A DNA stretch of 64,000 nt. Origin: a virus (taxonomy: Duplodnaviria; Caudoviricetes). The position numbers and the translations under genes are program-made. Shown here piece by piece: positions 2,566-58,952 of the stretch. The notes beneath the pieces are model-generated. The model saw nothing but the letters and a program-made list of their open reading frames with translations. It was not told where the DNA came from and made no database searches. How positions within the stretch are numbered: the first letter of the stretch is position 1; each line of letters begins with the position of its first letter. Location: the IMG/VR virus record IMGVR_UViG_3300024259_000011; one strand, 5' to 3'.

Positions 2566-2575
2566 TTTTTAGTCC

Positions 2576-3577: not shown

Positions 3578-3634
3578 GCTTTCTCTTAAAACATTCTTTT
3601 ACTGCTTGTGTAGCTTCCGTTCTATATCCGTATC

Positions 3635-11536: not shown

Positions 11537-14500
11537 TTACCTCCTCCCCACGGATGGTGAGCCCCACGACGCCCCAACTGCGGCGGAAGCTGCCGCTGAT
11601 GTGCTTGCCCTCATGCTCATTCGTCTTGAAGATTCCAAAACACTGCTAGCAAGAGAAGTGACGGCAGAAGCCCCGCTTTCTCCCGTGTCCATCGTAGGCG
11701 CCATAGTAATCTGTTGGCTCAAGTCTTGCAGTTCAATGTCGCTTATTAGTTTCTTATTTTTGAGGCTAATCGACATGTCGAGTTTAGTTGTCTCGACCAG
11801 AGAGAAGAAATCGTATGGCCAGTTGTAACTCCAGTCAGGTGTAGTCGTGCTTGATGCATTTTTAAACTTGAACCTAAACCTGCTATCGTCTGTGTCATCT
11901 GAGGTCTTCGCAAAGTAGTTAATCGCTGCACGTTGCTTAATCTTGAACACCATAAATCGGATTTGCGGAGGTACTTTAGTACCGCCAGTATCAGATGCTG
12001 CCCCAAGAAGCTCCAGAACATTAAGATCATGCGTGACCGACTTCGTTACCTGCTTCATAACCTTTCCAGAATCGGGGTACAATCCCTGCCACATATCTGC
12101 CAAATCTTGACCATCAAACTGATGCTCAAATTCAAACATGTACATTGCGTACGGATTTGCAGTGTCGTTGCGAGCAAAATCCAAGTGAGGGGGAAGCACA
12201 TAATCTTCCATTAGGCGCATTTGCCTTAAGACAGAAGCCCCAAGGTTCACTTGCAAGCCACTTTTCGGAGACTTGGCTTTGCCTTCCAGCGACAGCCCGT
12301 TTTCAAGCGCTGACCAATAAGTAACATTCTCGTAATCATTGCGACCATAATACCGATCAATCTGATCTCTGTTAAGTTCCACAAAGTGGCGGCGACCTCT
12401 GACCATAATATAAGGCATCGCAACCACTGCCTCTTTAACCTTCTTAACTTCTGCTACTTGTCCAAGCTTCTTGGCTGTGGGGTCAAACCCCACTAAGGAG
12501 CCTAATGACCTTGTGAGTGCGGGGATGCCTGACCGGGGCAAGAACTTGCCCGAAGGCACTGTTCGTGGTGATCCTACGGCATCTTGTATCTTGTGAAGAT
12601 ATTTTGCAGGATTACCCAAGCCAAATCCTTGCAGCGTCATAATGGGACTGCGAAGGTTCATGTCGGCAGTCCGGACATTAGCAATATGAACCGGGTTGGA
12701 ATACCACATTTCAATCGGATCTATGATAAACTGTTCCGGAATACTCTTACCGCGATTGGCGTGGGATCCCGTACTGTTGGAGACCCAGCCAGCGGCGGTG
12801 GCGTCCCAACCTCTCATACCCAAAGGATAAATATCTTCAAGACTCCGGAGATGGTTGGTGCTATATGCGTTATCGGCGGCAAGACCCGGGAGAGTTCCGT
12901 CAGCATGGAAGCCCTGAACACCTGCTTTTTCGCCGCCGCCGCCGGTGCCTTGAGCAGTTAACGAGCCGCTACAATTTGCGGGAGAGTCGTTGCTGTCACC
13001 GGCATAGTAATAGTCGCTAGCCCATCTTTGGTATGAAGTTTCGCCGGCAGTAAAACCGCTGATCAAACGGTTGCCGTTCGGGAAGACAGGCGCCGTTCCG
13101 GAAAGCGGACCATCGATAATATGATCTGCAACAAGCTGGCGGTTGGCTGGGGTGTCTCCGCCGCCTTCGCCCCTTCTAGAATACGAGCCAGTATATCCAC
13201 AAAGAATATCAGCCTTTCCTTGACCAACTGAACTGGAGACAACGTAGCTTGTATTAAAAGTGTTCGCAGGAATCTTTCCGCCGACCAGCGGTCCATAGTG
13301 TGCAGTGCCTTGGGCGCTATGGGTCAAGTGAAGGAGAGTGCCCGTAGAGAATGTTTTAACCTCATAGCCCAGCTTATTTGTATAGTACGGATGAGTGTTG
13401 TCATACGCATGGCTATAGAAACTAGCACCTAGGGCATCGCCAAAGGAACCTGTTCCAATGTTATTGGAGAAGTGAGGTTCTTCTGGAATAACGCCTCTCT
13501 TGTTCTTATGGAGCGGACTTCTGTATCCTGCTGCCAATGCAGCCACATCTACGTTCGGGTTGTTTGGCACAGAGTGCTCCCATTGGCTATAATAATTTCT
13601 GAATGGGATTGGTCCGCCTTCGTCATTGAAGGAGCCTGTCAGTTTTCCGATGCCCATTAAGCGCTGTCTGGCAGAGCTTGTGCCCGGGTAGCCTCGATTG
13701 AGATGGGTCTGCAAATCGATAGGAGAAGCGGCTTTGGTGGCGCCGCCGGCGAGATTGGGACCGCCTATGTGACCGTAGTTGAAGTTCGGCAGATTTTGAT
13801 CAGTTGCTGCGTTGCCGGTGGTGATGTTGAATCCCGTAGCGGAGGACCATACTATGTTTGCGGAGCCGGCGTCGGTTACACCGGTGTCATTGCCTGCTTG
13901 TCCGCCTTTTACGGATCTTAAGATAATGCGGTCGGTCCCAAGACCATGCTGAGCATGGGCGGTAGCCTCGATTGTTGACCCTTGTAGCGTGTTAATACAC
14001 AAGACTATAGCCGTTGCAACTACCTGATTGGATACGCCCGATCTGATAAATTGTCCGTTGGCGGCGTCGGTGGCATCTTTCGCGGTATATACTTGAGATG
14101 CGCCGGCGTAATCTGTAATCGTTATAGTCTGGTTCAACGCAGGGGGAGTAGGCGTGCCGTCAGGATCGCCATCAACTTGAAAACTTGCCATGGCATGTGT
14201 ACTAGTGCTTCCGCCGGCGTGGGCTGAGCCGCTGATAATATTGGAACCGGTGACTTCGGCAGTAATATAGAAGCCTCGTTCATAACAAGGGGCGCTACCG
14301 GAGATGCCCGGGGCAACTGCTGAAGTTCTCGTAATCGGACAGCCCCAAGTTGTATCCAGAATCGTTCCGTCGTCTGCAGAGATAAGTTGCAAGTGGGTCA
14401 TGTCTGCAATAATGCCAGCAAGCGAACCGGTTGACATCAGACGCCAGCGCATATATTGCTGTGCGCCGGAGTTGTCCTCTCGGGCTCCGGACCTTCCAGA

Positions 14501-17500
14501 TACCATATCTGGGTTATCGATGGTTTGACGACTGACGATAAATGCGTCTGCAGAGCCCGAGAAAGAACCACTGAATCTATAGCCTTCGCCGGCGAGGAGA
14601 ATGCCGTTAGTCTTGTTAACAATACTATTGGTAAACGTTCCTGAGATATGTCCGTCCCAATCTACTGCTCCATAATATTCTGTACTACCCGACTTCCAAG
14701 TTCTGAGGTTTGCGGTCGATCCGCAATTCCAATCCGGCGAGCCTGTGACTTGTAGCCATTTTGGATTTGCAATAGTCATCTCGGTGCCATGAAGGGTATA
14801 CGGCTCTGGGATGTCTCCAATCTCTAAATAGATTCCCTGCGAGGCTGACGGGATTTCGCCGTACTGGTGCCACATTCCGATTGGTTCGCAAAGACCAGCA
14901 TATCCATGATGATATCCGTTTCTCTCAACCAGACAAGAGCCAGAAGCAGAGCCAGAAAGTGTTGGCGCAGACTGGTTGTCCGTCAAGCCATACCCAAAGT
15001 GCAGGATTGGAGTCTCAAACTTAGTTTCGATAACCCAAGCAGAATTTCTAGTGCTTGTATCCAACGAATCGGAAACCGATAGCGGCTGACCGGTGAGAGC
15101 GTCGTAAGTAACTTCCTTGATTTGGGTTTTGCCCTTAATCTTAACTGCTGCGTCAACTTGCATTGCGTTAACGTTCATCGCATAGCCCTGCGGACCAACC
15201 GTACCCCAATCGCCGTAAGCGCCGGAAACATAGTCGAACTCGTATCTCAGGAAGTTAACAGTTGTATTCTCCCAGATATCATCAAGATAGTGCTTGCCTG
15301 TTCTGGTCGGCTTAAAGGTTACTAATGCCCATGCCTGCCCGTCGTAGTATGGAGGAGTGAACGGGGCATTGTATCCATTGGTGCTGTCCTTCATTCCATA
15401 AGTTGTGCCAATCCTGTCAGCTACCTTGCCAACTGTACCGGAGCCGGGAACGTGTGAGCCTGCGCCGGCGGCAAAGGACATAGACATCGGAGCCACAGAG
15501 CCAGTATACATATATTCAAGTTCTGGTTGGAAAGCATACCCGCCGGCGCATGGAGGACCAAAGGCGCTCGGGCGGCTGTACATTGTGATCGTTTCCGGCG
15601 CGATGATTTGTGGACGAGGATACTGTGATTCTTCCTTGGCATAATCTTGTCCATATGGGCTCTGATAGTCTGCAATTGGGTTACCGACTCCGAAGCCACC
15701 GTCGCTTGTCCATAGCCCGCCATCATCAGCCGCCTGAGAGTCACCGCCATCGGGGTCATAAGAGCCGGATGTGCTGCCGCCGAAGGCACCATATTCGACA
15801 CCCTCAGTCAGCGCGCCGCCGAAGCCCCGTTGGTATCCGCGTGCCTCCATTCCGACCACATCTGTGTAATAGCAAGGCTCGTATTGTCCCAAGAAAGGCA
15901 TGGTGCCACTTGGAGTCCCAGCGTGGGTCAGAGTTGGTATTGGCTTTAGAGGACCACGGTGGTTTGCCCAGTGGTTGCTGGAACTAGGAGTCGTAGACAC
16001 TGCAACAGATTCTTGAGACTTCCAGACCTTGACCATCATTCTATATTCCGGAATGATCTGATCTCCGTTGTGTACAACTGCGCTGACTTGACCAAAGTTA
16101 CCATCACTTTCAGGCAAAGAAGTAAACGACTGCATTTTTCCATCTGCGAGGAAGAAGCTGGGTACTTCTGCCAAGAAGTTATGCATCATCATCTTGTACA
16201 ATGGATCACCTTGACCATTCCAAGAAGCAGTAACATTCATGGACGCACTCGGGTGAGGCTCCATATCAACCAGTGGAACGTTTGTAAGATATTTTTCTGG
16301 CTCCACCAAAGTTTCAAATGGGAGCCGGTTGTCGAAGTATTCGTTTAGAATCTGGTAGTTCCTGCCGCCGTCACGGTCAACCGATGAAGTGGTGGCTAGT
16401 TTTCTGTTCAGAACAGGATAATCTACGGCGATACCGGATTTGATTGTATTAAAGAGGATGCCGGGAGCCATGAAAGGACCGTAAAACGGGCGTTTTGCTG
16501 CTGCCGCATTTCGACCATGAGTTTCAAAACCACTGCTGTAACGCTTTCCAGATCCACCAACTCTCGGACTAGTGGGATCCACGATTTCATCAAGATTAAA
16601 GTCATATCCGCCTTTGTCCACGTCACTGTAGAACATTGCAGTTGTGAGAGTATGTGCGGTGTTAGTACCACCACCAGCGAAGTTGCTACCGATGTGGATG
16701 CCGGTACAGTTTTCAGACATTGTTCTGTTACCGTTGGAGCCGGCAAGAACGCTTATAATAGTAAGTTCTACATATGAGCCGGCAACATGGGATATGTAAG
16801 CGATGAGCGTGTTTTTATGATCGCCGCGTTCAATAGCGTGGCGGAACGCATTTGCTCGCTCGATTGCTCCAGCAACCGTAGTAGCGGTACTCATTTTTTC
16901 CCAGCCAACCGTGTCGGTGCCTACAGTGTTTGCTTGTGCCACCGTGTAGATTACTGTATTATTAGAATAATCAGCTATAGTGAGAGCTTGACCGACTGAT
17001 GGTCCCGCGCTGTTGATAACAAACTGAAGTTTTGCGGCGGCGGCGCCGATAAGCATTGATCCATAGACTTGTCCTTCCGGAACTCTGTGCCATGGGTTAA
17101 ATCCATACCACGGCAAGGCGCTCTTCGGCGGTCTAATTGAGCCCGAACTGTCTGCTCGAACAAAAGAAGACGGCTTATCATTAACACCCATATCGGATTT
17201 AAACGTAACATGTTCGTCGTAACTGTTAATAAACTGCTTGCAAAGGTCTACAGTGCGAAGCTGCGGGTAAAAGCCTTCATACGGCAGGAACTTGAGAACC
17301 GCATCACATGTCAGCGTTAGCTGATATGGCTCTGCAATGTCTGTGTGCTTGCTGCGAATCGCATCAAAGAGAGCCGGCTTTGCAGTAATAGCATAATCGG
17401 AAACAAAAGACGAGGTAACAGTACTGCCAATTTTGGCTGTGTGCGAGGAACCCGTCAGTGGTCCACCGGCAGAAGAACTTGGGTTGCCAATAAGAGAGAG

Positions 17501-20500
17501 CCATTCGCTATCTCTAGACTTAAAGCGACCCTGCTTGTCGAGAACAAAGAAGGGGATCCTGTCGCTAATGCGATATTCCGGAAGCACTTGTCTGTCTTGT
17601 GATTTTCCTCGCATTTCCTCAAACCAATCTGAATAGTTGGCATAGAATGGAGCCTTGCCAGACTGCTCTGGCGCCTTCCATTTCCAGTCGCTGACGTAAA
17701 GTCCCTCGACTGTGTGTCCGATTGATCTTGTGAGTTGCGAAACGATGCGATCACCCAGATCGTATGGCTTAGGCGCTATAGATGAAGTGTGCGGAATTGT
17801 GCAAAATTGATTAGAGTTGATCCCGTCAGCAATACTGTATTCGTCGTTGTCATCGCTGGTCGCGTATTCGTGGTTTATACCGGGAAACATGGGACTCAAG
17901 CCATCACCCTTACCATAAGACGAAGCGCCAGTAAGTTCTGATGTTTCTGAGGCGAAGTTGAACCTTCGACTGTAAGCCGCTTTGCCGGCAGACGGCGAAC
18001 AATAACTGTCGCGTCCGACAAGCATGTGCGGTCTTGCATATGATGGTCCAAAAGCAATGTTTGACGCGGCGCAAACCACATAGCGCTCGGAAACCATGTA
18101 CCCTGCCGGATCGACCCGGGTGTTTCCGATCATCTCAGCTATATTCTGATAGGAGTTGACGGATACCGTTGAAGACGAGACCACTGGAATCCGGGTGCTG
18201 TCAGCAATATTCGTGGGATCCCAGCCATATTTCATGCCATTATGGAACCATGTGAACTGATTTTGTAGAATTCCGGGGGCGCCAAACGTGTGTGCTTTTT
18301 CGATGGAGCGACCGCGCATGAAGCCTCTGTTGTGGCTCAGCGCATCTGAACCCGATGCCCTAAATTGTGCAGCCTCTAGCGATCCATCGACGCCTCCTGC
18401 TCTTGCGCCGAGCATATCCTTTCTGTCAGTTAGCGCAGTGCTGTTGCGTTCAAGGTTAATACTTCCTCCGTCCATTGGCCAAACGCTGGCAGAGTATTCG
18501 ATATATTGAACGTTGTTTTCTTTTGACTCTTGGTTGTGGAAGACACTGTAAATCGTATCAGTTGTGCTCCAGTAATACGTCGATGCGTCTGGACCTAAGT
18601 GGAACCGAAAAGCCGTCCTAGGAGACCGGGGGTCACCGGTTTCGTCGAAATATGTCCTTCGACCAACTGGATCATAATCTACTAAGTGGGATTCGTCGTC
18701 AAGATGCTGCATTTCCGCGTCGTCGTCGGCTGCCCAAAAGCCTGCATCAAAACGGGCGCGGCTACGATAGCCGGCGCGACCAACATTTTTTGCTCTCGGG
18801 AAAATGGTTTCCCTGTATATTAAGCTTACTAATGTGTATGCATTGTCACCATTAATATCCGTCTTTTCCGTGTACATTTCATACAGATCATCAAACACGG
18901 TTCTTTCACTCTTATAGTTTAATAAACCTACATCTGTGTTAAGCTTGTTGATTGGGAAGTTTTTGAGATTGTTTTGATATGTACTCTTAACATAAAGCAG
19001 ATCTTCGGTTGTAGAATAATGGGTACCTTCGGGTCCGCCCATAGTTCCCAAGCCCGGGCTGAAATGTGCCTCAGTAAAGTCGCCGACCTGAATGGTGGTG
19101 ATCATCGACTTAGAGGACCGGTCTACAACTGGTACATAATAGTGATGGTGCGTTCTTTCTGCCGTGTTGATGTGACCTAAGCGCTTGAATGCCGCAACAG
19201 CATCCTTGCCTCGCATTCTACTCTTGTATCTGCGGCGACCAACAAAGCCCGGGGCGGGGTTTTCAACCCTGTCAGACTGAGGATCTACCAAAACATAGCG
19301 GTTGTTCTCGCGCATGGTTCTTGCAAGAATGTGCTCGCCGGTACGAATCTGCTTCCATGTCGGATATCCATACGGTCCATTGCGTTTCCACATCAAGCTA
19401 TTGAAGATGCTGGCAACAGACTGGTTAATGGCATAATGCTGATGATCTGTGGAAGAGGGTGTAAAGTCTACATTCTCATGAGTAAACGTCCCTGCTGCGC
19501 CTGACCAGTACATGGGGGTCACGTCATAGCGAATCTTCTCGTTATCCCATAGATCCGGGCTGGTGCCATCGGAATCACCAACAAAAGCACCCTGAAGGTG
19601 GATTTTCTCGGAGTTGTGGATGGTGGGACCAATGCCGGAAACCGATTCGCGACCATCGTTGAACAAGAACGTGCCGTTAAGATAGTTATGCAAGCTGCCA
19701 ATGCGAGAGCCATATGCAAATCCGCCGCGTCTATCGTTTGTGTTCGCGCCGATAACCTGCTTATCGTCTGCTGGCAAGATGCCGCCTGAAGCAAAGAAGC
19801 CCAAAGCGACAGCGCCTGAAGCGTCTGAGAGCCATGTGTTCTGCTCTTCGCGGAGATTTAGGTTGAGCGTCTGGACGTTTGGAATATCCTGATAGCCCAG
19901 AGACTTAGCGATACCAAAATATCGGAAGCCTCGGTCGTCGCTGTTGGCGTGAGTGTCCGTGTCGCCGATGGCACTTCCCGCATCGCTAGCACTGTTAAAC
20001 AAGATCGGGTCAACCGGTCGAGAGCCGGTGAGTGTCGGGATGTTAAGAGACGATAGGTGGTACCCGTAACCTAACTGTGGAAGTGTTGAATCGCTGCCAG
20101 ACGGCGCCAAAGACGCACTAATCCAAGCATACTGATAATCATTTTGCGGGATTGGGCGAGTTACATAGTCGTTATCGTAACGCCACCTATCGACAACAGC
20201 GGGAAGCGCGCCGGCGCCCATTTGAGTATCCCCCCATGAAGTGCCCTGTTCGCCGACTGCGGCGCCTCCGTCAACAGTAAACCAAGTCCCAAGCTCGTTA
20301 CGGGCTTCTGCGGCGTTGCTCCAATCAATAGAGTTGGCTAAAGTCCCGCTCAAGGCGTAAGTCAGAATGATAACTTGATAGTAGTTTGACGATCTGTTAG
20401 TGTAGTCTGAGACACCAAAGCCTGTTGTGCCCTTGATCGCATTTCCAAGTGCAGTTATATTTGCAGCACTATCAGCGATTGCAGAGGCTGTAGTGTGAAT

Positions 20501-23500
20501 ACCAATGAGATATGGATCAGCCGCTGTACCCGCTTTTGTAAGGTCGGTAACATCAACGCCGGTGTCGTCAACGCTGTTTTTCCATTGATAATGGTGTGAT
20601 GAGCCGGTGGCATCTTGAATAATAACTGTGGAGCCGGCGGTGGGTAGTGTTGAGTATAGGTTACCAATAGCGACCTTTCTTGCTACCGAAGTAGGATCTA
20701 AATCTGCCTCTTCATCGCTGCGACCGCTGCGGAATCCAAAACTCGGGTTTCTGTTGACCTTGTGCCATGATGCCTGCGTATCGTAAGTACCGGCAGTTGC
20801 ACCACTTGTGACAGTCGGCAAGCCGAACCTGCCCATGGGAAGGCGACGGAGTGACTGCAATCCCAATCGTGGGTGTGCAGCCATATCGTGGGTGCTTGCG
20901 CTAATGTTGTATTGCTCACCGCTTGAAGAGCCTAAGACTTCAAGGTTCCGCCATGGGTATGCGTTGTATACAGAATATTCTTCTGCCGCGAGGTCAAGGA
21001 ATCCCTTGGATTGGTTTCTTGGACCGCCGGGAGCAGAGAACCTGTTTGCGAAAATTGTATCTAAGTTAGTGCTGGAAGACGCTCTATTCTGAACTTCAAA
21101 ATCCATATAAACGTGTTGATCATCAGTGCCAGCGCCGCCACCCTTAATCGCAGAAACAATAACTCTTGCGCCGTCTGCAACTGAGGCTGAAGAGTGGGGA
21201 TCTGCTAAATAGTTATATACAAAGACATCTGTGTTGTCTGTAGAAGAAAGGTGTTGGGGATCGCCGGTCGTGCTGTTTGGCAAGAATGAGTGGCGCTGAG
21301 TCAAGAAAGTCTCGACATGTGTGGTCGCCGGAAGTTCTACAATGTTGGTTGGCGTAGTGGCGCTCCATGACGCGCTGACGCCTGCAGTGTTGACATTGCC
21401 GCTAACTTCTGCGAACGAACCTGTCTGCAAAATATTGCGAACCGATTGGTTGTCTCTTAGGAACGGCTTCTGCACAGAACGTCCGACTGTGTGGACGACC
21501 TCGTAGTTCTTTCTGTAGTTCCCAATGATCGTTCTTGCGGAACCGGTAGCAATCTGGTTATGGTAGTCAATAACCCAAGTGTCAGCAGTACCAGTGGCAG
21601 GTGTGAGAGGCTGAGTGTTATAAGCAAACTGAGTTGCGACGGTAGAGTTCTGGGCTGCCGTAAGGTTATAAATGCCGTACAGTGCATCGTCCTCCCATCT
21701 GGTGCCTAGGCGGTCTGTGTCGTATTCGTTGCGCCCGTCATAGAACAATACAGAGTTCTTGCCCTGACTTGTCAGAGAATGATCGCTGCTGTGATCACCC
21801 ATTCTCCACCATGCCAACAGGCTACCAGTATCAGACTGATAAGCCAGAGTCCTCACCACGAATGGCGGACCTCCAGAAGCGGTGTTGGGGTGTGAATAGT
21901 AACCCCCGTTGCCCATTAGTTCTCGGACTTCGCCTTGTGATAGCGGTCGATTCCAAATGGTAATGTCGTCTATTGAGCCACTAAACTCATATGATGCTGG
22001 AGCGCTGATATTTCCGCCGATTACGACTGCCGGGGCGATATTAAGCGCATTATTTGAACTGTCTTTGCGGAAGGCGTGTGAAGAAGTCATTTCAATGACA
22101 AACTTGGCGGGTGCGATGTTGGTCGTTACAGTCTGCTCCGTACCGTTAAGATAGACTTTCGGCTTCGCGTCGGTGTCAATCTCAAAGCCGTCTGAGCCGG
22201 AAGTACCGCCCTGAGTCGCATCGTAAGTAACTGCTAAGTGCCACCAGCCCTCATTGTCTGTAAGATATGAGCCGCTTTCATCACTGTTAAGTGTCATTGA
22301 GCCTGTGGCTGTAACCCACTGAGCGTGGCGACCATATGTCGTTTGTCCTTGTTCCTGCAGAGCATCGGAAGTTGTTGGCAGCCGAATCGACAAGAAGTCG
22401 TTAGCCGTTTTGTCGATTGTCCAGCCGCCATATTCGCCGCTAGGTCCATATTTAGCACTGCCCATAGTGATGAGGCGGCGGTTTGTGCCGTCATCCTTCA
22501 TCCACAGCCATGTAGAGTACGTGAACTTGGCATTGCTGCCTGAGAAGTAGAATGGGTTGCTAGAGTAGTCAGGAGTCTCCGAGTGAACATGCCGCACTGT
22601 GTTGGTGACAGCGGTGTATGGTCCGTAGATGGATGCGCTGACATAAAGAACATCACCAGCCGCATCTCCGGAGGCTGGCCAAGTAACACCCTTTGAGTTG
22701 CCAGCGTAAATGTTTACAACCTTGTGGCGACCAACGTTTTGTGTTTCTGGGTAAAGATAATAATCTCCCGCAGAAGCCGTCTTCATCTGAATGTTTCTGA
22801 TGTTAACTGGTCTCTTCGCGGTTTCATCGCGATAGTATCTACCGCCAATCGGTCGCCAGTTAGTAGCGTCACCTTGCGCGAAAGGATAAGGACCATGTGG
22901 GTATGGATAGTCTGGACCAACCAAACCAACGCCACCAGAAGTTGCGTCAATAACACCGTCTGAATAACTCATAGCCGTGCTTATGAGCATCAAGAAACCT
23001 TCTTCTCGATTTTGAATTGTGTGCGTTCCGTCGTTAACGTCGGCGTGTCGGTACCTTCGACCTCCAACATACTTTTCAGTAAACGGACCCTGCAGAGGTA
23101 GTTCCTTGTCTTCGCCGTATGTGTCTGTGTGAAGGTTAACTAAGTTAACACCTCGACCGAGACCACCAACCTTCGTAGTTATCTGTGATGGCGGGTCGAA
23201 ATAAGCTTGCCCAATCTTGTGAGTGTAAGTCCCATCAGAGCTAGTGCTGGTGATTGCTATGCCAGTGCCAGTGTATACAGTTAACTCTTGATTGATTAAT
23301 GCGGTGTAGCCTGCGTTAACATCCTCGGTGCTAGAAGAAATAACGTTAAAGGGCATGACCAAGTTACCACGGAATGTGGTGTATGACCCGGATCCCCAGT
23401 CTGGAGTATAAGCTCCGCCGGCAACATATTGCCCACCAGCGTTTGACTTGAAAGTTTCCCAGCCATCAATAACCTTATAACCTTCTCGTTTTACAACGCC

Positions 23501-26500
23501 ACCGTATGAACTGGATGTGGGAGTATCACAGTTGGGAAGACTTGCGCTCGGTGATGCGTCCTTGTCCATGTCCTTCGCCAGCAAATAGCCAAGTGGGAAA
23601 CCACCATAGATATGATAATCAAGGGGTCTTGGAGAGAACGGTACTGTAGCCGGATAAACATAATCCAACTTCTTAATGTCATCGTAGTTGATACCACCAT
23701 GAATGATGGTGCTTCTGTGTACAGAATATTTATAAGGAGTCGTGTACTGTCTATTAAATGTTTGTGCGCTGGCACTAAAGATGCCGGTGCGAGAAGCTAA
23801 CGTACCAGAGTGGTGCAAATCATTAGCGCTGCCGCTTGTCGCACGCAAAGCAGTCGCAGCTAGAATCGGATGTTCACGATCTGCTCGGCGACTCCACCAT
23901 AAGCAGTTCTCGTTGTCGTCCATCATCTCAGCAGAGCCGGTTGAACCTACTTCAACTGAACTGATCGAGTGGATATCCCTCGGAAGAGGGGCACGACCAC
24001 GTTGGTAATCGTACAAAAGTTTATTAATACCTTCGGCGCCTGCAATCGGAGGATCACCGTGGAATTCCATTGAAGGGAACTTGGTCTGGTATTTGTTTCT
24101 TTCCAGAATATGGCTCTCGACCATCGTTCTCAAACCTTCAGAAGAGTAGGCGGAGGCAGGCATAAGCTGCTCTAAGAACCTACTGACAGCGCCATCAACC
24201 CATTTGTAGTAGTCAACGTATTTGTCCAAGTCAGGAGTGTTGCCAATCCTTTCAAAGAACAGTTGACGAAGTTTCGCCAAGTCCTTATATTCGTGTCGGT
24301 ATCGGTTAACCGGCTCGCCGATGAGGTTGTCGAAGTCCTTAAGTGTGGCGAACATATTGATCATTTCTTCCGAAATGGTCTGGTACATGCTCTTTTCGAG
24401 CGCGTAAACAACCTTTGATGGTCGTGTCTCTCTGGTGAAGAACTCATCGTCACGTCTGCGAATCTCGACCATATCGCTGCTGTACAGATATTCTGGTAAG
24501 ACCATCTTAGCAGTAGGGATGTATCGCGTGTTAACAACGTTCGTCTTGTTGTCCAAGAAGAAATCACCGATACCTAGGTGCTGCATTCTGACTTGTGGGC
24601 TGAACTCTTCCTTGTATCGGTCGCCGTGGTCCGCTGATCCGGAAGACATATCATGCACAATGAACTGTGCATCTTGAGTGTTTAGTGCGGTGGTCGGGCT
24701 GTCTCCGGATCCAGTGACATTATCAAAGTTCCAGTGAAGCGCCAAAGTCGCAAGTTGTGGCACATAAACGCCACTCATCGCAGACTGATATACAAATGCA
24801 TTTTCGTATGGGCTGGTGGTACCGTAGTTGCTCTCGTCCATCGCGTGTGCAAGAACGACATTATCCGGTATATAACTCATCCAATAACGGAGATTTCCGA
24901 CATCAACGTTGGAATAATGAAGAACAGTTGAGCTAGTAAAGTCTTGGTGTAGGGCGCCGGCGTAACATCGTTTGGACGAAGACAAGAAAGTTTTACCAAC
25001 TGCTTCTGATACGGTAGTGGAAACACTAAACTCGTTTTGTACCAAATCGGTGAACATGTTAACGCCGTAGAACTCAACATCAAACGAGTTATCAAGACCG
25101 GCATTAAAGCTGGTTGCAGTGACAGTTGTGACGCCACTCATATCAATAGACGTATTCCCTGCAGTACCATGGGCTGCTTGGGTGAGTGTTATTCGCAATG
25201 GACCGGTTTGTTCAGTCGCGGCGATTGCAACATCGGATGCGTTGATAGCATCTCTAATTCTTTCTCCTACTGATGCGGCACTACCTAGAGCACCATTAAC
25301 ACCAATGATTACATTATCTCCATCTTTGGTGCCATCTACGGTTGTGACAGCGCGCTTAAATATAAAACCTACTGCAAGTCCTGCAGCATCTGTAAGGGTA
25401 AAAGTCTCACCGGTGAGCGGTCCACCCGTAGTGGTGATTGCTGCTGTTGCGGCACTAGAAGATCCGCTAACTTGATCTTGCCATGGGTATTTCGAGGGCT
25501 TGACTCTGACTGCAAAGTTCCATCTCGTATCGTCATAAATGTCTTCATAATATGAAGAGGTCAGCACGCCCAAGTTGGATGAAGATAGTTGGAAGTATGC
25601 TCTCTTAGATTCTAACCTGTCCTTGATTGCCATAACGCGGAGGTCTACGCCGTCGTCGGTTGGGAACCTAGTATCAGTGGTGCTCTCAACCGTGCCCATG
25701 GCGCCAAACAAAGATGCAGTAAAGAATGAGTCTTGGAACCATGTAGTGCTATCAGTTGGTTCGTCCTTCAGCGGGAAGAAGACTTCGCACTCGATGGTCT
25801 GCGGGTTGTATGCACCAAAGGCGCTGCCGCTAGCAGAGCCTGTAATATAAGCTGCTGCATGAGGGTTGTCATATACACCGTCTACAGACATAGACATCGC
25901 TTGATAAACCGTTCCTTGGAAGCGGTCTGGATGTGAGAAACTTACATAGTTTGTCTTATTCGATGTACTGCGCCGGTTATCTTTGAACACATAATCCGAT
26001 TGGTCAGAGTATACATTAAGCTTTACGAGTTCATCATCAACTCCGAAGCACCGTAACATATTGCGGAAAGACTTCTCGGTTCCTTTTGACTTGAAAATGT
26101 AGAGCAAGTTGGCGTAGATATTGGTGTAAATCTGATTTCGAGTATCTGCCAATGTCTCAGCATATTCTTTCTTTTCGTTGCGATGTAGGAAGTTCTCAAT
26201 GAATTCTGCTTCTTGCAGCAGTTCCGGTGTTGCGATTCCAAATTGTGAAACAAGCTTGTCTGCGAATGGGATGGGCTTGTAGCTAGCCGAATGTGCATTC
26301 TGGGTGTAAGCTGTCGAATATCGTTCTTTAATCTTACCCATCGCTTCAATCTGCAGATGCAGTTTATCGAAGTAGCTACCCATAATCTGAGTCAATTCAC
26401 TCAGTGTTTCAGATTCCTCGGCGCCTTCTTCAGATGTCCAAGACGGGAAACCAGCAGCTATTTTAGAAGGATTAAGGTTATCATGCGTAGAGCCGGATGC

Positions 26501-27907
26501 GGCTAACTCGCCACGGAGACCAGAAACTTCTGGGTGTGCTCTGTAGATAATTGGATCGTGGAACTCATAGCCATTGTGACTACCAGAGGTCATAGCAGAG
26601 CCAGTATTTCTAACCTCTGCTACACCACCACGCCACCAACCATTTGAGATTCGACCAGAATAGTCCAGAACCGTTGCATCACGGCTAGCCGTATGCATAA
26701 CACCTTCGTTGAACTTATAATAAACTCCGAGACCAACGTTGGATAGATCAGTGTTGGTTCCGCCGGCGATCTGAGTGTGCCAGTATCTTCCAATCTGCTT
26801 GGCATCACGGACAAGCTTCCAATAACGAAACTCGTCCAGTGAAGCTGAAAGCTTTGCTCCGCCCTTGGCAATCGTTGTCGTATCGTAATACCCTGTGGCG
26901 CCGGAGGGTGGAGCACGTAGGGCGCCCAAGTTTGCGGTAATGGAGCCGGTGACTCGACCTAAGGCTGCAGAACCCAGCTTTGAAGAACCGCTGACTTGTC
27001 CGTTGACAAACAATCTTGCGTTAACGCCGTCATCGTCCGGATCATTCTTAAGAGTAATAGCATAATGTTTCCAAACACCGTCAGCAACATCTGATGGGGT
27101 GATGGTCGCGATGGGCTGATTGATGAATCCCGACGTACCTGATTGGGCTGTCAACCTGATGGCTGAGCCTGCATCGGCGCCGCCCGTAAGCTCGATCATT
27201 AATCGACCATAGCCGGCTGAAGATGAGTTCTCGTTGTTCCAAAGGTCGAAGATTACTTCGCGTTCGGTCTTGCTAGTATAGAAATCATTTTTAAGGAGCC
27301 AGAACTCAACGGTTACGCCTGTCCGGAGGTCAAACTCCATGTTGTATTCTCTGGCTGAGCCTGAGTCATAAACATTGGAAAATGTGAAAAGCTTTTTTGA
27401 GCTTACATCGTGAGTCTCAAACGTACGATCAGCCGAACCGGTGTGAGGACCAGCCTTAATCTCGATGTACTCAAGGATATTATTGCTGGTAGTGTCTGGC
27501 ATACCATAGCCGCCAACAGTCTCGTCCGAAGAACTGACCATGCTGAGCCAGTCGCCTGAACCAGAGGTGGTACCAAGAGAAACATAACCTGTTGATTTCG
27601 GGTATCGATTCTCGAATATCCAACGATCTAGATAAGAAGACGAGTTTTGAAACTCTACCTTTTCTGCGCGGGATCCGTCGTAAGGATAAGTGTTTGTGAT
27701 CCGCTCGATACTGTCAGTATAATATTTCTCAGCAGAGCCGTATCTGGCGAAGTTAGAGGCAGTCGAAAAATCCACTGAGGGTACAAAGGTATTCTTATCA
27801 ACAATATATGCTTCTACATACGCCTCAGACTCGGCTTCATATGATACCTTGTCAGCGCTGCTGGATTGTGTTGTTTTTGTACTCTCAAATAAATCTTTAA
27901 GACTCAT
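11537..27907 (-). CDS. Giant baseplate wedge/fibre protein (gp7 / P2 gpI-like core with three LamG-like domains)
   Basis: 5456 aa. 'LLYIFKSKGTEKSFRNMLRCFG' matches the KGT...L..FG wedge motif. LamG-like domains at about 26700-27330, 24720-25810 and 21800-22550 (TVEFW, WKHYAIT/WWHLAVTYD, LFVNG/VYLNG, SLDEFRYW/SIDDITIWNRPLS). Follows gp25 and gp6 genes. Confidence 0.75.
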   Translation of the reverse strand: MSLKDLFESTKTTQSSSADKVSYEAESEAYVEAYIVDKNTFVPSVDFSTASNFARYGSAEKYYTDSIERITNTYPYDGSRAEKVEFQNSSSYLDRWIFENRYPKSTGYVSLGTTSGSGDWLSMVSSSDETVGGYGMPDTTSNNILEYIEIKAGPHTGSADRTFETHDVSSKKLFTFSNVYDSGSAREYNMEFDLRTGVTVEFWLLKNDFYTSKTEREVIFDLWNNENSSSAGYGRLMIELTGGADAGSAIRLTAQSGTSGFINQPIATITPSDVADGVWKHYAITLKNDPDDDGVNARLFVNGQVSGSSKLGSAALGRVTGSITANLGALRAPPSGATGYYDTTTIAKGGAKLSASLDEFRYWKLVRDAKQIGRYWHTQIAGGTNTDLSNVGLGVYYKFNEGVMHTASRDATVLDYSGRISNGWWRGGVAEVRNTGSAMTSGSHNGYEFHDPIIYRAHPEVSGLRGELAASGSTHDNLNPSKIAAGFPSWTSEEGAEESETLSELTQIMGSYFDKLHLQIEAMGKIKERYSTAYTQNAHSASYKPIPFADKLVSQFGIATPELLQEAEFIENFLHRNEKKEYAETLADTRNQIYTNIYANLLYIFKSKGTEKSFRNMLRCFGVDDELVKLNVYSDQSDYVFKDNRRSTSNKTNYVSFSHPDRFQGTVYQAMSMSVDGVYDNPHAAAYITGSASGSAFGAYNPQTIECEVFFPLKDEPTDSTTWFQDSFFTASLFGAMGTVESTTDTRFPTDDGVDLRVMAIKDRLESKRAYFQLSSSNLGVLTSSYYEDIYDDTRWNFAVRVKPSKYPWQDQVSGSSSAATAAITTTGGPLTGETFTLTDAAGLAVGFIFKRAVTTVDGTKDGDNVIIGVNGALGSAASVGERIRDAINASDVAIAATEQTGPLRITLTQAAHGTAGNTSIDMSGVTTVTATSFNAGLDNSFDVEFYGVNMFTDLVQNEFSVSTTVSEAVGKTFLSSSKRCYAGALHQDFTSSTVLHYSNVDVGNLRYWMSYIPDNVVLAHAMDESNYGTTSPYENAFVYQSAMSGVYVPQLATLALHWNFDNVTGSGDSPTTALNTQDAQFIVHDMSSGSADHGDRYKEEFSPQVRMQHLGIGDFFLDNKTNVVNTRYIPTAKMVLPEYLYSSDMVEIRRRDDEFFTRETRPSKVVYALEKSMYQTISEEMINMFATLKDFDNLIGEPVNRYRHEYKDLAKLRQLFFERIGNTPDLDKYVDYYKWVDGAVSRFLEQLMPASAYSSEGLRTMVESHILERNKYQTKFPSMEFHGDPPIAGAEGINKLLYDYQRGRAPLPRDIHSISSVEVGSTGSAEMMDDNENCLWWSRRADREHPILAATALRATSGSANDLHHSGTLASRTGIFSASAQTFNRQYTTPYKYSVHRSTIIHGGINYDDIKKLDYVYPATVPFSPRPLDYHIYGGFPLGYLLAKDMDKDASPSASLPNCDTPTSSSYGGVVKREGYKVIDGWETFKSNAGGQYVAGGAYTPDWGSGSYTTFRGNLVMPFNVISSSTEDVNAGYTALINQELTVYTGTGIAITSTSSDGTYTHKIGQAYFDPPSQITTKVGGLGRGVNLVNLHTDTYGEDKELPLQGPFTEKYVGGRRYRHADVNDGTHTIQNREEGFLMLISTAMSYSDGVIDATSGGVGLVGPDYPYPHGPYPFAQGDATNWRPIGGRYYRDETAKRPVNIRNIQMKTASAGDYYLYPETQNVGRHKVVNIYAGNSKGVTWPASGDAAGDVLYVSASIYGPYTAVTNTVRHVHSETPDYSSNPFYFSGSNAKFTYSTWLWMKDDGTNRRLITMGSAKYGPSGEYGGWTIDKTANDFLSIRLPTTSDALQEQGQTTYGRHAQWVTATGSMTLNSDESGSYLTDNEGWWHLAVTYDATQGGTSGSDGFEIDTDAKPKVYLNGTEQTVTTNIAPAKFVIEMTSSHAFRKDSSNNALNIAPAVVIGGNISAPASYEFSGSIDDITIWNRPLSQGEVRELMGNGGYYSHPNTASGGPPFVVRTLAYQSDTGSLLAWWRMGDHSSDHSLTSQGKNSVLFYDGRNEYDTDRLGTRWEDDALYGIYNLTAAQNSTVATQFAYNTQPLTPATGTADTWVIDYHNQIATGSARTIIGNYRKNYEVVHTVGRSVQKPFLRDNQSVRNILQTGSFAEVSGNVNTAGVSASWSATTPTNIVELPATTHVETFLTQRHSFLPNSTTGDPQHLSSTDNTDVFVYNYLADPHSSASVADGARVIVSAIKGGGAGTDDQHVYMDFEVQNRASSSTNLDTIFANRFSAPGGPRNQSKGFLDLAAEEYSVYNAYPWRNLEVLGSSSGEQYNISASTHDMAAHPRLGLQSLRRLPMGRFGLPTVTSGATAGTYDTQASWHKVNRNPSFGFRSGRSDEEADLDPTSVARKVAIGNLYSTLPTAGSTVIIQDATGSSHHYQWKNSVDDTGVDVTDLTKAGTAADPYLIGIHTTASAIADSAANITALGNAIKGTTGFGVSDYTNRSSNYYQVIILTYALSGTLANSIDWSNAAEARNELGTWFTVDGGAAVGEQGTSWGDTQMGAGALPAVVDRWRYDNDYVTRPIPQNDYQYAWISASLAPSGSDSTLPQLGYGYHLSSLNIPTLTGSRPVDPILFNSASDAGSAIGDTDTHANSDDRGFRYFGIAKSLGYQDIPNVQTLNLNLREEQNTWLSDASGAVALGFFASGGILPADDKQVIGANTNDRRGGFAYGSRIGSLHNYLNGTFLFNDGRESVSGIGPTIHNSEKIHLQGAFVGDSDGTSPDLWDNEKIRYDVTPMYWSGAAGTFTHENVDFTPSSTDHQHYAINQSVASIFNSLMWKRNGPYGYPTWKQIRTGEHILARTMRENNRYVLVDPQSDRVENPAPGFVGRRRYKSRMRGKDAVAAFKRLGHINTAERTHHHYYVPVVDRSSKSMITTIQVGDFTEAHFSPGLGTMGGPEGTHYSTTEDLLYVKSTYQNNLKNFPINKLNTDVGLLNYKSERTVFDDLYEMYTEKTDINGDNAYTLVSLIYRETIFPRAKNVGRAGYRSRARFDAGFWAADDDAEMQHLDDESHLVDYDPVGRRTYFDETGDPRSPRTAFRFHLGPDASTYYWSTTDTIYSVFHNQESKENNVQYIEYSASVWPMDGGSINLERNSTALTDRKDMLGARAGGVDGSLEAAQFRASGSDALSHNRGFMRGRSIEKAHTFGAPGILQNQFTWFHNGMKYGWDPTNIADSTRIPVVSSSTVSVNSYQNIAEMIGNTRVDPAGYMVSERYVVCAASNIAFGPSYARPHMLVGRDSYCSPSAGKAAYSRRFNFASETSELTGASSYGKGDGLSPMFPGINHEYATSDDNDEYSIADGINSNQFCTIPHTSSIAPKPYDLGDRIVSQLTRSIGHTVEGLYVSDWKWKAPEQSGKAPFYANYSDWFEEMRGKSQDRQVLPEYRISDRIPFFVLDKQGRFKSRDSEWLSLIGNPSSSAGGPLTGSSHTAKIGSTVTSSFVSDYAITAKPALFDAIRSKHTDIAEPYQLTLTCDAVLKFLPYEGFYPQLRTVDLCKQFINSYDEHVTFKSDMGVNDKPSSFVRADSSGSIRPPKSALPWYGFNPWHRVPEGQVYGSMLIGAAAAKLQFVINSAGPSVGQALTIADYSNNTVIYTVAQANTVGTDTVGWEKMSTATTVAGAIERANAFRHAIERGDHKNTLIAYISHVAGSYVELTIISVLAGSNGNRTMSENCTGIHIGSNFAGGGTNTAHTLTTAMFYSDVDKGGYDFNLDEIVDPTSPRVGGSGKRYSSGFETHGRNAAAAKRPFYGPFMAPGILFNTIKSGIAVDYPVLNRKLATTSSVDRDGGRNYQILNEYFDNRLPFETLVEPEKYLTNVPLVDMEPHPSASMNVTASWNGQGDPLYKMMMHNFLAEVPSFFLADGKMQSFTSLPESDGNFGQVSAVVHNGDQIIPEYRMMVKVWKSQESVAVSTTPSSSNHWANHRGPLKPIPTLTHAGTPSGTMPFLGQYEPCYYTDVVGMEARGYQRGFGGALTEGVEYGAFGGSTSGSYDPDGGDSQAADDGGLWTSDGGFGVGNPIADYQSPYGQDYAKEESQYPRPQIIAPETITMYSRPSAFGPPCAGGYAFQPELEYMYTGSVAPMSMSFAAGAGSHVPGSGTVGKVADRIGTTYGMKDSTNGYNAPFTPPYYDGQAWALVTFKPTRTGKHYLDDIWENTTVNFLRYEFDYVSGAYGDWGTVGPQGYAMNVNAMQVDAAVKIKGKTQIKEVTYDALTGQPLSVSDSLDTSTRNSAWVIETKFETPILHFGYGLTDNQSAPTLSGSASGSCLVERNGYHHGYAGLCEPIGMWHQYGEIPSASQGIYLEIGDIPEPYTLHGTEMTIANPKWLQVTGSPDWNCGSTANLRTWKSGSTEYYGAVDWDGHISGTFTNSIVNKTNGILLAGEGYRFSGSFSGSADAFIVSRQTIDNPDMVSGRSGAREDNSGAQQYMRWRLMSTGSLAGIIADMTHLQLISADDGTILDTTWGCPITRTSAVAPGISGSAPCYERGFYITAEVTGSNIISGSAHAGGSTSTHAMASFQVDGDPDGTPTPPALNQTITITDYAGASQVYTAKDATDAANGQFIRSGVSNQVVATAIVLCINTLQGSTIEATAHAQHGLGTDRIILRSVKGGQAGNDTGVTDAGSANIVWSSATGFNITTGNAATDQNLPNFNYGHIGGPNLAGGATKAASPIDLQTHLNRGYPGTSSARQRLMGIGKLTGSFNDEGGPIPFRNYYSQWEHSVPNNPNVDVAALAAGYRSPLHKNKRGVIPEEPHFSNNIGTGSFGDALGASFYSHAYDNTHPYYTNKLGYEVKTFSTGTLLHLTHSAQGTAHYGPLVGGKIPANTFNTSYVVSSSVGQGKADILCGYTGSYSRRGEGGGDTPANRQLVADHIIDGPLSGTAPVFPNGNRLISGFTAGETSYQRWASDYYYAGDSNDSPANCSGSLTAQGTGGGGEKAGVQGFHADGTLPGLAADNAYSTNHLRSLEDIYPLGMRGWDATAAGWVSNSTGSHANRGKSIPEQFIIDPIEMWYSNPVHIANVRTADMNLRSPIMTLQGFGLGNPAKYLHKIQDAVGSPRTVPSGKFLPRSGIPALTRSLGSLVGFDPTAKKLGQVAEVKKVKEAVVAMPYIMVRGRRHFVELNRDQIDRYYGRNDYENVTYWSALENGLSLEGKAKSPKSGLQVNLGASVLRQMRLMEDYVLPPHLDFARNDTANPYAMYMFEFEHQFDGQDLADMWQGLYPDSGKVMKQVTKSVTHDLNVLELLGAASDTGGTKVPPQIRFMVFKIKQRAAINYFAKTSDDTDDSRFRFKFKNASSTTTPDWSYNWPYDFFSLVETTKLDMSISLKNKKLISDIELQDLSQQITMAPTMDTGESGASAVTSLASSVLESSRRMSMRASTSAAASAAVGASWGSPSVGRR

Positions 27908-29405
27908 GTTTCTCTACTCTGAACTTAAACGCCTCTGGTTGCTCCACATAAGAGCTGAGTGCGCCGTTATAATATGCGAATTGGATAGCGTATCCATAGC
28001 CCGGTTCTAGTAGTTCCATGTCCAAGTCAAAATAGTTGCCTGAGACATCGAATGATAACTGTGTTTCCATGGTGCTACCGGTGCCGTGAGGGATTACTAC
28101 ATAATCGTCTGTAATTCTGTAAATCTTGAAGGAGCCACTGTCAATACTCAAATTGGGGATTGTAGCGGTTGCCTTAGAATAAATAGATGGGCTCCAACCT
28201 TTTTCGCGAACGAAAAGCCTGAATCTAGCTGTTTCATCTGGGTGGTAAGTCGCCTTAAGGTTAGTAATCTTTGTTACATGTATGGGCGTGGGATTGTAGT
28301 CGGAAGCTTCCAGCAGTTCTGGGTAGATGGAGCCTGTATGCCATTGGGTGCCATCGACCTCCCCTGTACACCAAACATCGAACAATCTATTTACAGGAGT
28401 TGATGCTGCAGTCATGCAGACATCCACACTATAGACGCCTGTTGAGACCCAACTTCCAGTAGCTGGAGTGGATGAGGACATCTCGTCGGACACGGATACT
28501 TGAATCAAAGAATTGGTTGCCGGCTGGGAGTTGTCTGCAGAGCCAGAGTACATATGAACATATACGCTTCCAGTGCCGCCAGCCTCTCCGTGAGACGCGC
28601 TCACTTGAGGCAAGTTCTTTAACTGCCCTCTGACATAGTTGTATAAAAAGAGCGTATTTTTATTATCGTCTGCCTCTGCCAAAGAACTACTGTAGAAGAA
28701 GTTTGCTCTGTCGTCCTTGTCGGCAGAATCCCAGCGAGCCTCGATAACGGGGCGCTTATAAAAGTACTGGCTTGACCTTGCAAAGAACTTTTTGCTGTAA
28801 TAGGAGCTAGATGCGACTTCGTGGCTAGAGGATAGCATGACTCCGACACCATAGTTTGTGTAAGTGTCGGCTAGCCAGTACTCAACCATGCCTGTAATAT
28901 CAACTTCCAAGTCTTCCGTGCCATCGATGAAGTTGGTAGAGTAGACCAAGCTGGTTTGATAGTCGCCGCCGGGGGCTGTCCAAGCTGTCACGCCGCTGGA
29001 CTGGCTTTGTGCCGCAGTCCAGTTGGCATATCCATAATCGGTATAAGAGTCTGCGTCGATGCCGGTGCCTTCATCCCAGTTTCTAGAGATCGCTTTAACC
29101 ATTAAAGTGAAGTTTGTAGGCACCGTAAAGGGATGAACCGCATTAAACATACGCAAGTAAAATGAAACGTTTCCGCTAGCAGGTAATGAGCCGCCGGAGC
29201 GGTCTGAAGTGATGTTGTCTGTTGGGAACTTGACCAATAGGCGAGAGTTCTCGGAAGATGTTCCCTGCGCTTGTCCATAAATATGAAAGATCTCCATACT
29301 GTCTGCTGCGCCCATGTTTGAGCCAGTCGCATGTGAGGTCATGTTTGCCTTGAAAGCATTCGTGATAGTCGTGTCTGCAAACGCAGTATATCTTTTAATG
29401 CCCAT
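27897..29405 (-). CDS. Baseplate-associated protein with DNRLRE/CBM96-like N-terminal domain
   Basis: 'ADTTI...NMG...SRLLVKF...YLRMF...ISRNWDEG...ANW...WTAPGGDY' follows the DNRLRE pattern. Lies between the gp6-like and gp7-like genes. Confidence 0.6.
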   Translation of the reverse strand: MGIKRYTAFADTTITNAFKANMTSHATGSNMGAADSMEIFHIYGQAQGTSSENSRLLVKFPTDNITSDRSGGSLPASGNVSFYLRMFNAVHPFTVPTNFTLMVKAISRNWDEGTGIDADSYTDYGYANWTAAQSQSSGVTAWTAPGGDYQTSLVYSTNFIDGTEDLEVDITGMVEYWLADTYTNYGVGVMLSSSHEVASSSYYSKKFFARSSQYFYKRPVIEARWDSADKDDRANFFYSSSLAEADDNKNTLFLYNYVRGQLKNLPQVSASHGEAGGTGSVYVHMYSGSADNSQPATNSLIQVSVSDEMSSSTPATGSWVSTGVYSVDVCMTAASTPVNRLFDVWCTGEVDGTQWHTGSIYPELLEASDYNPTPIHVTKITNLKATYHPDETARFRLFVREKGWSPSIYSKATATIPNLSIDSGSFKIYRITDDYVVIPHGTGSTMETQLSFDVSGNYFDLDMELLEPGYGYAIQFAYYNGALSSYVEQPEAFKFRVEKHES

Positions 29406-31260: not shown

Positions 31261-31650
31261 TCAACTTACTGACACTTCAAGCTCGCTGCGACGATTCAAG
31301 GGTTTGATGTTGAAAATAATTTTAATCTGAATAGTATTATCCGGCACTGTGTCGTGCCCCAAGCCTTGGGAAGCGAACTTAATATCTAGTATTTCTAAAT
31401 ACGGTAGCCAGCGACCGGCTTGTTTATAAATTATGCCTGAAAGTGTGCCGTAAGTAGAAGGGTGATCCACTTCAAAGAGGAATCTCCTTACGCCGCAACC
31501 GAAGTCAGGAATCATTATCCTTTCCCCGGGCGAAGTCAGTAAAAGCATTTTCAAGTTTTGAACCACTAGATCATGATAATTCTTGTTAAGTTTGATTCCG
31601 TCTTTAGAATCAATAGTCAGCGGTGCTACTGGTGATAGTCCTTCTGCCAT
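31261..31650 (-). CDS. Baseplate wedge subunit gp25 (GPW/gp25 family)
   Basis: 'NLKMLLLTSPGERIMIPDFGCGVRRFLFE...RWLPYL' is the gp25 family signature. Confidence 0.92.
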   Translation of the reverse strand: MAEGLSPVAPLTIDSKDGIKLNKNYHDLVVQNLKMLLLTSPGERIMIPDFGCGVRRFLFEVDHPSTYGTLSGIIYKQAGRWLPYLEILDIKFASQGLGHDTVPDNTIQIKIIFNIKPLNRRSELEVSVS

Positions 31651-40433: not shown

Positions 40434-40447
40434 GAAGTTTCCTCACA

Positions 40448-41380: not shown

Positions 41381-41396
41381 TTGTTATCCTATTGTG

Positions 41397-52215: not shown

Positions 52216-52216
52216 G

Positions 52217-55226: not shown

Positions 55227-55228
55227 CT

Positions 55229-55564: not shown

Positions 55565-55574
55565 TTGTTTCTCC

Positions 55575-57232: not shown

Positions 57233-57233
57233 G

Positions 57234-58950: not shown

Positions 58951-58952
58951 TG

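Follow-up and report, generated by a model that had tools for sequence, protein, structure and literature searches.

The 64,000-nucleotide stretch of DNA analysed here, hereafter the window, belongs to an uncultured marine tailed virus of the Caudoviricetes (IMG/VR record IMGVR_UViG_3300024259_000011) and encodes several distal baseplate proteins in which, as in those of many relatives, the tripeptide Ser/Thr-Gly-Ser ([ST]GS) is enriched about fivefold. Across related phages the motif co-varies with a hypervariable island of sugar and glycosyltransferase (GT) genes, in agreement with a co-occurrence suggested by an earlier reading of the window's letters alone (the original prediction), and a clade without the island has lost the motif in all orthologous carriers. 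Considering these sequence comparisons together, we assign a probability of roughly 0.55 to the reading that [ST]GS is an acceptor signal for a phage-made glycan on distal baseplate and fibre proteins, where we infer the modification to be a sugar.

The motif was counted as overlapping matches in translated open reading frames (ORFs), and expectations were calculated from amino-acid composition; the minus strand encodes every gene of this region. The giant baseplate protein of 5456 aa (11537..27907), which is located after gp6 and a 502-aa gene and contains LamG/pentraxin-type domains, carries 47 [ST]GS (26 SGS and 21 TGS) against 9.2 expected. When this protein was shuffled 1000 times with its composition preserved, the mean count was 9.3 with a standard deviation of 3.0 and a maximum of 22, and none of the 1000 shuffles reached 47. 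Of the frequent tripeptides in the giant protein, SGS and TGS score highest, while SGT (n = 7) and TGT (n = 3) are not enriched against the 7.9 expected jointly. The 502-aa beta-sandwich baseplate protein (27897..29405) has 7 [ST]GS against 0.9 expected, most of them at family-conserved positions (27, 287, 357, 423 and 442). Likewise, a distal baseplate protein of about 410 aa that is cut by the window edge has 6 in its N-terminal 227 aa (1..681) against 0.5 expected, three of which overlap in TGSTGSGS. A 406-aa protein (1345..2565) is a weak carrier, with 2 against 0.9 expected.

Other proteins of the same region do not carry the motif. It is absent from the proteins of 2927, 1344, 1186, 605, 378 and 310 aa and occurs once in that of 1066 aa, so that these seven jointly show 1 copy against about 6.5 expected. 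Among them, the 605-aa gp6-like baseplate wedge protein (29405..31222), in which the motif is absent in every lineage, provides an internal negative control, and the 2927-aa and 310-aa proteins together with the 1344-aa spike (31650..45431) have 0 against 3.9 expected. In the sugar island and its neighbours, 21 ORFs contain 1 copy against 2.1 expected. The original prediction had counted about 47 copies by hand (26 SGS and 21 TGS, with 8-10 expected), rare SGT and TGT, 7 copies in the 502-aa protein, none in the 2927-aa, 1186-aa, gp6 and spike proteins, and a dispersed rather than tandem arrangement. All of these claims were reproduced by our counts and site positions, and the enrichment survived the composition-matched shuffles that it had named as a check. 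Only its 5 copies in the 227-aa edge protein needed correction, since the enrichment holds there with an actual number of 6.

To exclude trivial causes, we considered the nucleotide sequence, the composition and the repeat structure. The [ST]GS sites of the giant protein make use of every codon for Ser, Thr and Gly, and the signal is therefore at the protein level; given such diverse codons, a DNA-level cause such as a restriction site or a codon pair was ruled out. The shuffles and first-order expectations ruled out a composition artefact. The 47 sites are dispersed with a few spaced 4-6 residues apart, and their flanks are unrelated, which ruled out a hidden tandem or domain repeat.

The enrichment extends to the protein families of the carriers. 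At least 575 related contigs are present in IMG/VR. For the giant protein, 120 homologues of 3000-5800 aa were retrieved from metagenomes, and in 119 of them [ST]GS was enriched 2.5- to 7.8-fold, the exception being P0120 with 2 copies against 2.5 expected. Homologues of the 502-aa protein exceed 4000 in 90% clusters, and clustering at 50% identity leaves 1282 representatives. The best 120 of the more than 4000 homologues have a mean of 7.7 copies against 1.0 expected, and 149 representatives at 50% identity contain 953 in total against 158 expected. When the 119 giant homologues were pooled, X-G-S was enriched solely for X = Ser (4.1x) or Thr (5.0x), and [ST]-G-X was enriched solely for X = Ser. 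The middle residue was preferred in the order Gly, Ala (about 3.2x) and Ser (about 2.3x). Since [ST]-A-S and [ST]-S-S are enriched too, the true signal may be a hydroxyl residue, a small residue and Ser, in which case the [ST]GS count underestimates the number of sites. Around the motif in the giant homologues, Lys, Pro and acidic residues are depleted; at position -1 Asp is at 0.46x and Glu at 0.53x, and the depletion of the two acidic residues extends over -1 to -3.

The sites are retained beyond what sequence similarity would give. A homologue with 75% identity to the giant protein retains 42 of the 47 sites, while control triplets are retained at 41-52%; for a homologue with 43% identity the figures are 10 of 26 sites and 9-12%, and this partner sequence has 24 sites of its own. 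The conserved core of the window's giant has 20 [ST]GS in 2552 aa (3.4 expected), and its lineage-specific parts have 24 in 2128 aa (4.9 expected). These comparisons indicate that selection acts on the sites, while new ones arise in lineage-specific domains. The third-position Ser is the best-conserved motif residue, and near-invariant columns are found at N-T-G-S-A-[IM] (residue 435 of the giant) and T442-G-S (502-aa protein).

Phages with comparable proteins were then used as controls. T4 has 20 [ST]GS against 28.4 expected overall, with 0 in gp7 and enrichment nowhere, and the giants of the cyanophages P-SSM2 (7 against 8.5) and P-SSM4 (14 against 11.2) are at expectation. These phages rule out a generic property of giant or fibre proteins. 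In P-SSM2, one 597-aa protein (18953-20746; L209/L210) has 15 copies against 3.8 expected. A tblastn search found no giant or 502-aa homologue in cultured phages, and the gp6 homologue is the sole link to two of them, Flavobacterium phage immuto and Microcystis phage Mel-JY01, whose wedge proteins are about 30% identical to the 605-aa gp6-like protein. Both phages are enriched in the motif. In immuto, the tail spike has 26 against 5.9 expected and the sheath 7 against 1.3, with several fibres enriched too, and in Mel-JY01 the baseplate module has 49 against 7.3 expected. The immuto genome has the same layout of a nuclease, two GT4 genes and an island, the latter with a GT2, WecE-type aminotransferases, a methyltransferase, an epimerase and a 'pilin glycosylation protein', and Mel-JY01 has a small island with a GT-A, a methyltransferase and a GT2. 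Within 635-8430 of Mel-JY01 (L158), an 805-aa protein with 37 sites and a 508-aa protein with 13 lie directly upstream of a motif-free 1227-aa ORF with a Glycos_transf_1 domain.

The GTs and Sulfotransfer_2-type enzymes that the original prediction had placed in the same genome are present at 47245-64000. According to Pfam, this region encodes a GDP-mannose 4,6-dehydratase, a DegT aminotransferase, two HAD phosphatases, a nucleotidyltransferase, a methyltransferase, a GT10-like protein, a GT2-Sulfotransfer_2 fusion and two GT4 enzymes. The variable sugar island spans 47245..62041 and holds further GT-like ORFs. At higher coordinates lie the core GT4 c1 (432 aa; 62254..63552), which occurs in all relatives examined, motif-less clade included, and the C-terminal part of the core GT4 c0 (63531..64000; Pfam), which is truncated at the end of the window. 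The island proteins scanned with Pfam did not include a flippase, a polymerase, a lipid-carrier transferase or export genes, which fits a soluble cytoplasmic acceptor.

In all relatives, the gene order is PhoH, a small gene, a peptidase-like gene, a PD-(D/E)XK nuclease, c0, c1 and, where present, the island, followed by four small genes, the spike, a protein of 1800-2900 aa, gp25, gp6, the 502-aa gene and the giant. In the window and in 12 of 12 motif-bearing relatives, the GT4 pair and the island lie directly upstream of the spike/baseplate operon, placing phage GTs near structural genes. An island of about 8-20 genes was found between c1 and the gene c2 in 12 of 12 motif-bearing genomes examined. 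The island content is highly variable, and the sole family present in all 12 is an SDR epimerase/dehydratase. When we looked for an extra GT family common to all islands, none was found, with c1b occurring in only 7 of the 12. Of the GTs in the group, the core GT4 c0 is conserved best; it was present in 23 of 23 further contigs at 57-76% identity. Its nearest solved structure is the chlorovirus NY-2A GT B736L (3oy2; E = 5e-8), a weak similarity limited to the generic GT-B C-terminal half. In the PDB sequence search c0 gave generic GT4 matches only and c1 gave no match.

Two islands or core genes deserve separate mention. The small island of G009/G024 (L133/L132 for G009; L132:10308-11419) contains a split transketolase, with the N-terminal and pyrimidine-binding halves as two ORFs adjoining an SDR dehydratase, a DegT aminotransferase, an FkbM methyltransferase and a GT8-like protein, which suggests a branched-chain or two-carbon-extended deoxy-amino sugar. 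In the G025 contig, the core GT4 c0 (25454-26644) is interrupted by one in-frame TAG, which may mark a pseudogene or recoding of the stop in that phage, or may stem from a sequencing error.

Lineages without the motif provide a natural experiment. Clade A consists of three IMG/VR contigs, G006 (103.8 kb), G007 and G008, and includes P0120. Its giant proteins are at chance (2 against 2.5, 2 against 2.6 and 1 against 0.7 expected), as are its 502-aa homologues (0-1 against 0.4 expected), and in all three contigs c1 is followed directly by the small genes, with no island. The carriers shared by the window and the 91%-complete G001, namely the 502-aa, giant, 406-aa-like and 227/412-aa-like proteins, are all motif-empty in G006. 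The 412-aa orthologue of the edge protein has 5 copies against 1.0 expected in G001 and 1 against 0.2 in G006, and the 406-aa orthologue has 4 against 0.7 and 0 against 0.2, respectively. The gp6-, 378-, 1186-, 1066- and 317-aa-like proteins are motif-empty in the window, G001 and G006 alike. A scan of the G001 proteome flagged seven proteins, all of the virion, while that of G006 flagged none (17 observed against 23 expected over 72 ORFs). These scans indicate that motif status is a property of the genome and not of the protein.

In gp6 trees with immuto and Mel-JY01 as root, clade A is nested and is sister, with 98/88 support, to motif-bearing phages with small islands. Because clade A is nested and the outgroups bear the motif, the joint absence is a secondary loss. 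GC content does not separate the groups, and GC or composition drift was ruled out as its cause. In the clade A proteins, Gly is often kept while the flanking Ser or Thr is replaced by Asp, Glu, Lys, Asn, Val or Ala. The motif-less giants (P0120 and G007 L086) contain 8.3% and 7.2% Glu as compared with 4.2-5.0%, and less Ser, Thr and Gly, as though the loops bearing the motif had given way to an acidic protein surface. A substitute motif was looked for in the motif-less clade and none was found.

A second motif-less clade, separate in the tree, comprises G034 with P0393/P0356, and the whole 138 kb of G034 shows 32 [ST]GS against 30.8 expected. In G034 (L233-L239, 10004-26737), the giant is split into four consecutive ORFs of 1903, 1117, 785 and 1738 aa. 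Other motif-poor lineages of the 502-aa family (P0349, P0356, P0381 and P0325) are on short contigs or outside IMG/VR.

The positions of the sites were judged by DSSP and pLDDT (predicted local distance difference test) of AlphaFold2 models. Residues 1-850 of the giant were modeled as a LamG/pentraxin jelly roll (pLDDT 76), and the 502-aa protein as a CBM-like sandwich followed by Ig-like domains (pLDDT 85), with matches to CBM/Ig-like folds. Of the 18 sites in the two models, 10 are in coil, several of them in low-confidence loops, 6 are at the first or last residues of strands or helices, and 2 are inside regular elements. Homologues lacking the motif at motif columns have nearly all small or polar replacements, with a hydrophobic fraction of at most 0.11. 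These placements fit sites that are probably surface-exposed.

Such positions also raise the question of whether [ST]GS is an unmodified structural turn or capping motif of beta-sandwich and LamG-type domains, its link to the island being coincidental. Sites at strand and helix ends, such as Ser437 immediately before a helix, would be expected of a capping motif, as would fixed columns in conserved domains, including L-S-[GA]-S-[LIM]-D-E-F of the LamG core and N-T-G-S-A-[IM], the latter retained even by the motif-less clade; the frequent retention of Gly where the flanking Ser or Thr is lost agrees with this as well. However, the motif-less clades retain the proteins and their domains with Asp, Glu, Lys or Asn in place of the hydroxyl residues, and other beta-rich proteins of the same virion, like the giants and fibres of T4, P-SSM2 and P-SSM4, are not enriched. 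Furthermore, turn geometry hardly explains the strict preference of Ser over Thr at position 3 or the equal density in unrelated lineage-specific domains. We therefore regard a purely structural motif as unlikely. The all-or-none behaviour across a genome and over unrelated domains, the strict residues, the conservation with turnover and the tolerance of replacement after island loss instead argue for a trans-acting reader rather than a folding requirement.

The genome-level pattern over several proteins speaks for a trans-acting reader without naming one. The motif could be the target of another modification, such as phosphorylation, phosphoglycerol or another small group, or by a trans-acting chaperone or protease, encoded by the host or elsewhere in the phage genome and lost or irrelevant in motif-less lineages; that the core GT4 pair does not track the motif is in line with this. 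Nevertheless, we consider it quite improbable, in that, at the syntenic site, the sugar island was the one gene block found to distinguish motif-bearing phages from clade A, the regions examined showed neither a kinase nor an enzyme of similar type, and cleavage at 47 sites of one structural protein is implausible. Lower still is the likelihood we give to an adaptive but unmodified surface feature, for example hydrophilic flexible loops that bind host polysaccharide and were lost with the island on a host switch. While the carriers are distal and receptor-facing, and the Glu-rich motif-less giants suggest a changed surface chemistry, binding leaves unexplained a strict tripeptide with an invariant Ser in unrelated contexts over dozens of domains. 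Considering that the island is the sole block found to differ at the syntenic site and that Pfam revealed no export or lipid-carrier genes among the island proteins scanned, cytoplasmic O-glycosylation of exposed loops is the most economical reading.

Several points weigh against glycosylation at [ST]GS and call for caution. The co-loss of motif and island is one evolutionary event in one clade of three genomes, and the G034 contig (70% of the genome) ends just before the island site, so that its lack of GT4 and SDR matches is uninformative. The core GT4 genes are intact in clade A, with EX7E and 88-91% of the conserved columns kept; since the islands share no further GT family, none of the enzymes matches the distribution of the motif one-to-one. 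A GT cluster also occurs in P-SSM2, which is not generally enriched, meaning that such a cluster by itself does not predict the motif. The N-T-G-S-A-[IM] column at residue 435, still present in the motif-less clade, may be structural. In addition, marine phages frequently have clusters of GT and sugar-synthesis genes, which are usually assumed to modify the host envelope or DNA (PMC12801897), and the island could serve such another target. Glycoproteomic or glycostaining data on virion proteins were not found in the literature searched.

Among known systems, the closest is that of mycobacteriophages, in which, in the accounts cited, phage GTs glycosylate virion proteins (Freeman 2023, cited in PMC12619734 and PMC12801897), with glycans on the C-terminal tails of capsid and tail-tube subunits that are thought to shield the particle (PMC12619734). 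As summarized there, this makes the claim of the original prediction that no such system was described in tailed phages too strong. In both cases, tailed phages with their own GT genes would decorate virion proteins in the cytoplasm. In contrast to the C-terminal capsid and tail-tube extensions of mycobacteriophages, the putative acceptors here are tripeptides scattered inside baseplate and fibre proteins, and in immuto also inside the sheath protein, and they go with a hypervariable island whose roughly 8-20 genes include some for nucleotide-sugar synthesis. The literature searched had no description of such a scattered sequon, linked to a hypervariable island, on baseplate or fibre proteins, and the island-less motif-less clade and the cultured carriers are new additions of the present analysis.

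Capsid or fibril glycosylation in chloroviruses and mimivirus is similar in its virus-encoded nucleotide-sugar pathways (GDP-mannose dehydratase, aminotransferases and methyltransferases) and in soluble GTs that act without the host secretory machinery, whereas those are giant viruses of eukaryotes and the chlorovirus glycans are N-linked at atypical sequons. In Gram-positive bacteria, GtfA and GtfB, an adjacent pair of GT-B fold, carry out cytoplasmic O-GlcNAcylation of serine-rich-repeat adhesins at Ser in Ser-small-Ser contexts, and the glycan is then extended by GTs from a variable locus. Unlike this pair, c0 and c1 had no detectable sequence match to GtfA/GtfB in the PDB search, and the sites here are dispersed single tripeptides in folded domains rather than long tandem Ser-X repeats.

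The proteoglycan analogy of the original prediction, based on eukaryotic Ser-Gly glycosaminoglycan attachment, was not supported. Although Ser lies beside Gly in both and the window encodes Sulfotransfer_2 domains, the motif requires Gly to be preceded by Ser or Thr and followed by Ser, its flanks are depleted of acidic residues, and Pfam scans of the island revealed GT2, GT4, GT10-like and Sulfotransfer_2 families only, with neither a GT14-type xylosyltransferase nor glycosaminoglycan polymerases. Nor does a sulfated coat hold as a general property. On clustering the proteins of 13 regions, the GT2-sulfotransferase grouped only with one G016 protein, which indicates that sulfation is limited to a few lineages. 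What stands of the proposed sequon and gene cluster is thus the enrichment over shuffles and the co-variation with the island, while the proteoglycan analogy, general sulfation and the lack of precedent do not. The Bacteroidota O-glycosylation rule D-[ST]-[AILVMT] does not describe the sites either, as Asp at -1 is depleted (0.46x) and Gly follows Ser or Thr. For the autotransporter heptosyltransferases (Aah/TibC), general Pfam scans of the island revealed no BAHT family, and no dedicated BAHT search was made.

As for the remaining features of the window, the 1344-aa spike contains Amidase_2 and M23 domains, and the label DNRLRE given earlier to the 502-aa protein has only an NCBIfam match of 21.9 bits behind it, below the cut-off of 34. 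The loci of relatives have an annotated gp25 (PF04965), giving the arrangement of a T4-type baseplate with gp25, gp6 and then large wedge proteins; in this comparison, homology of the giant protein to gp7 was not established. A 207-aa ORF (709-1332, minus strand) lies between the 406-aa gene and the 227-aa edge gene. It has one weak homologue in G001 (22% identity), on the opposite strand and elsewhere in the genome, and looks like a lineage-specific insertion in the baseplate operon. In all relatives, a conserved 227-aa backbone protein (c13; L132:1810-2490), with weak matches to Peptidase_M90 and anthrax lethal-factor-like metalloproteases, is placed between PhoH and the PD-(D/E)XK nuclease.

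In the mechanism we propose, [ST]-G-S, or a looser [ST]-[GAS]-S, would mark exposed loops of distal baseplate and fibre proteins, to which a covalent glycan would be added in the cytoplasm. Soluble phage-encoded GTs would build the glycan from nucleotide sugars supplied by the adjacent hypervariable island, and the invariant third-position Ser would be the likely acceptor. The conserved GT4 pair is a candidate reader of the motif, yet it is intact in the motif-less clade. The glycan coat would vary between phages like a serotype and, in the window's lineage, might contain sulfated and methylated sugars. In its widest form, which we put forward only tentatively and at slightly less than even odds, abundant and mostly uncultured aquatic myoviruses would coat their distal baseplate, fibres and sometimes the sheath with O-glycans on the third Ser of [ST]-G-S, an O-antigen-like island would give 'serotypes', and some lineages would have discarded it along with the sequons.

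The hypothesis is directly testable, as immuto and Mel-JY01 are cultured and carry both motif and island, with motif-less relatives as the natural negative state. A motif that appears and disappears with the island would point to the virion itself as the glycan target, and would allow exposed, modified virion proteins to be predicted from sequence only. Hypervariable glycans on the virion could influence the range of hosts, the evasion of their defences, and how stable and adhesive the particles are in the sea.

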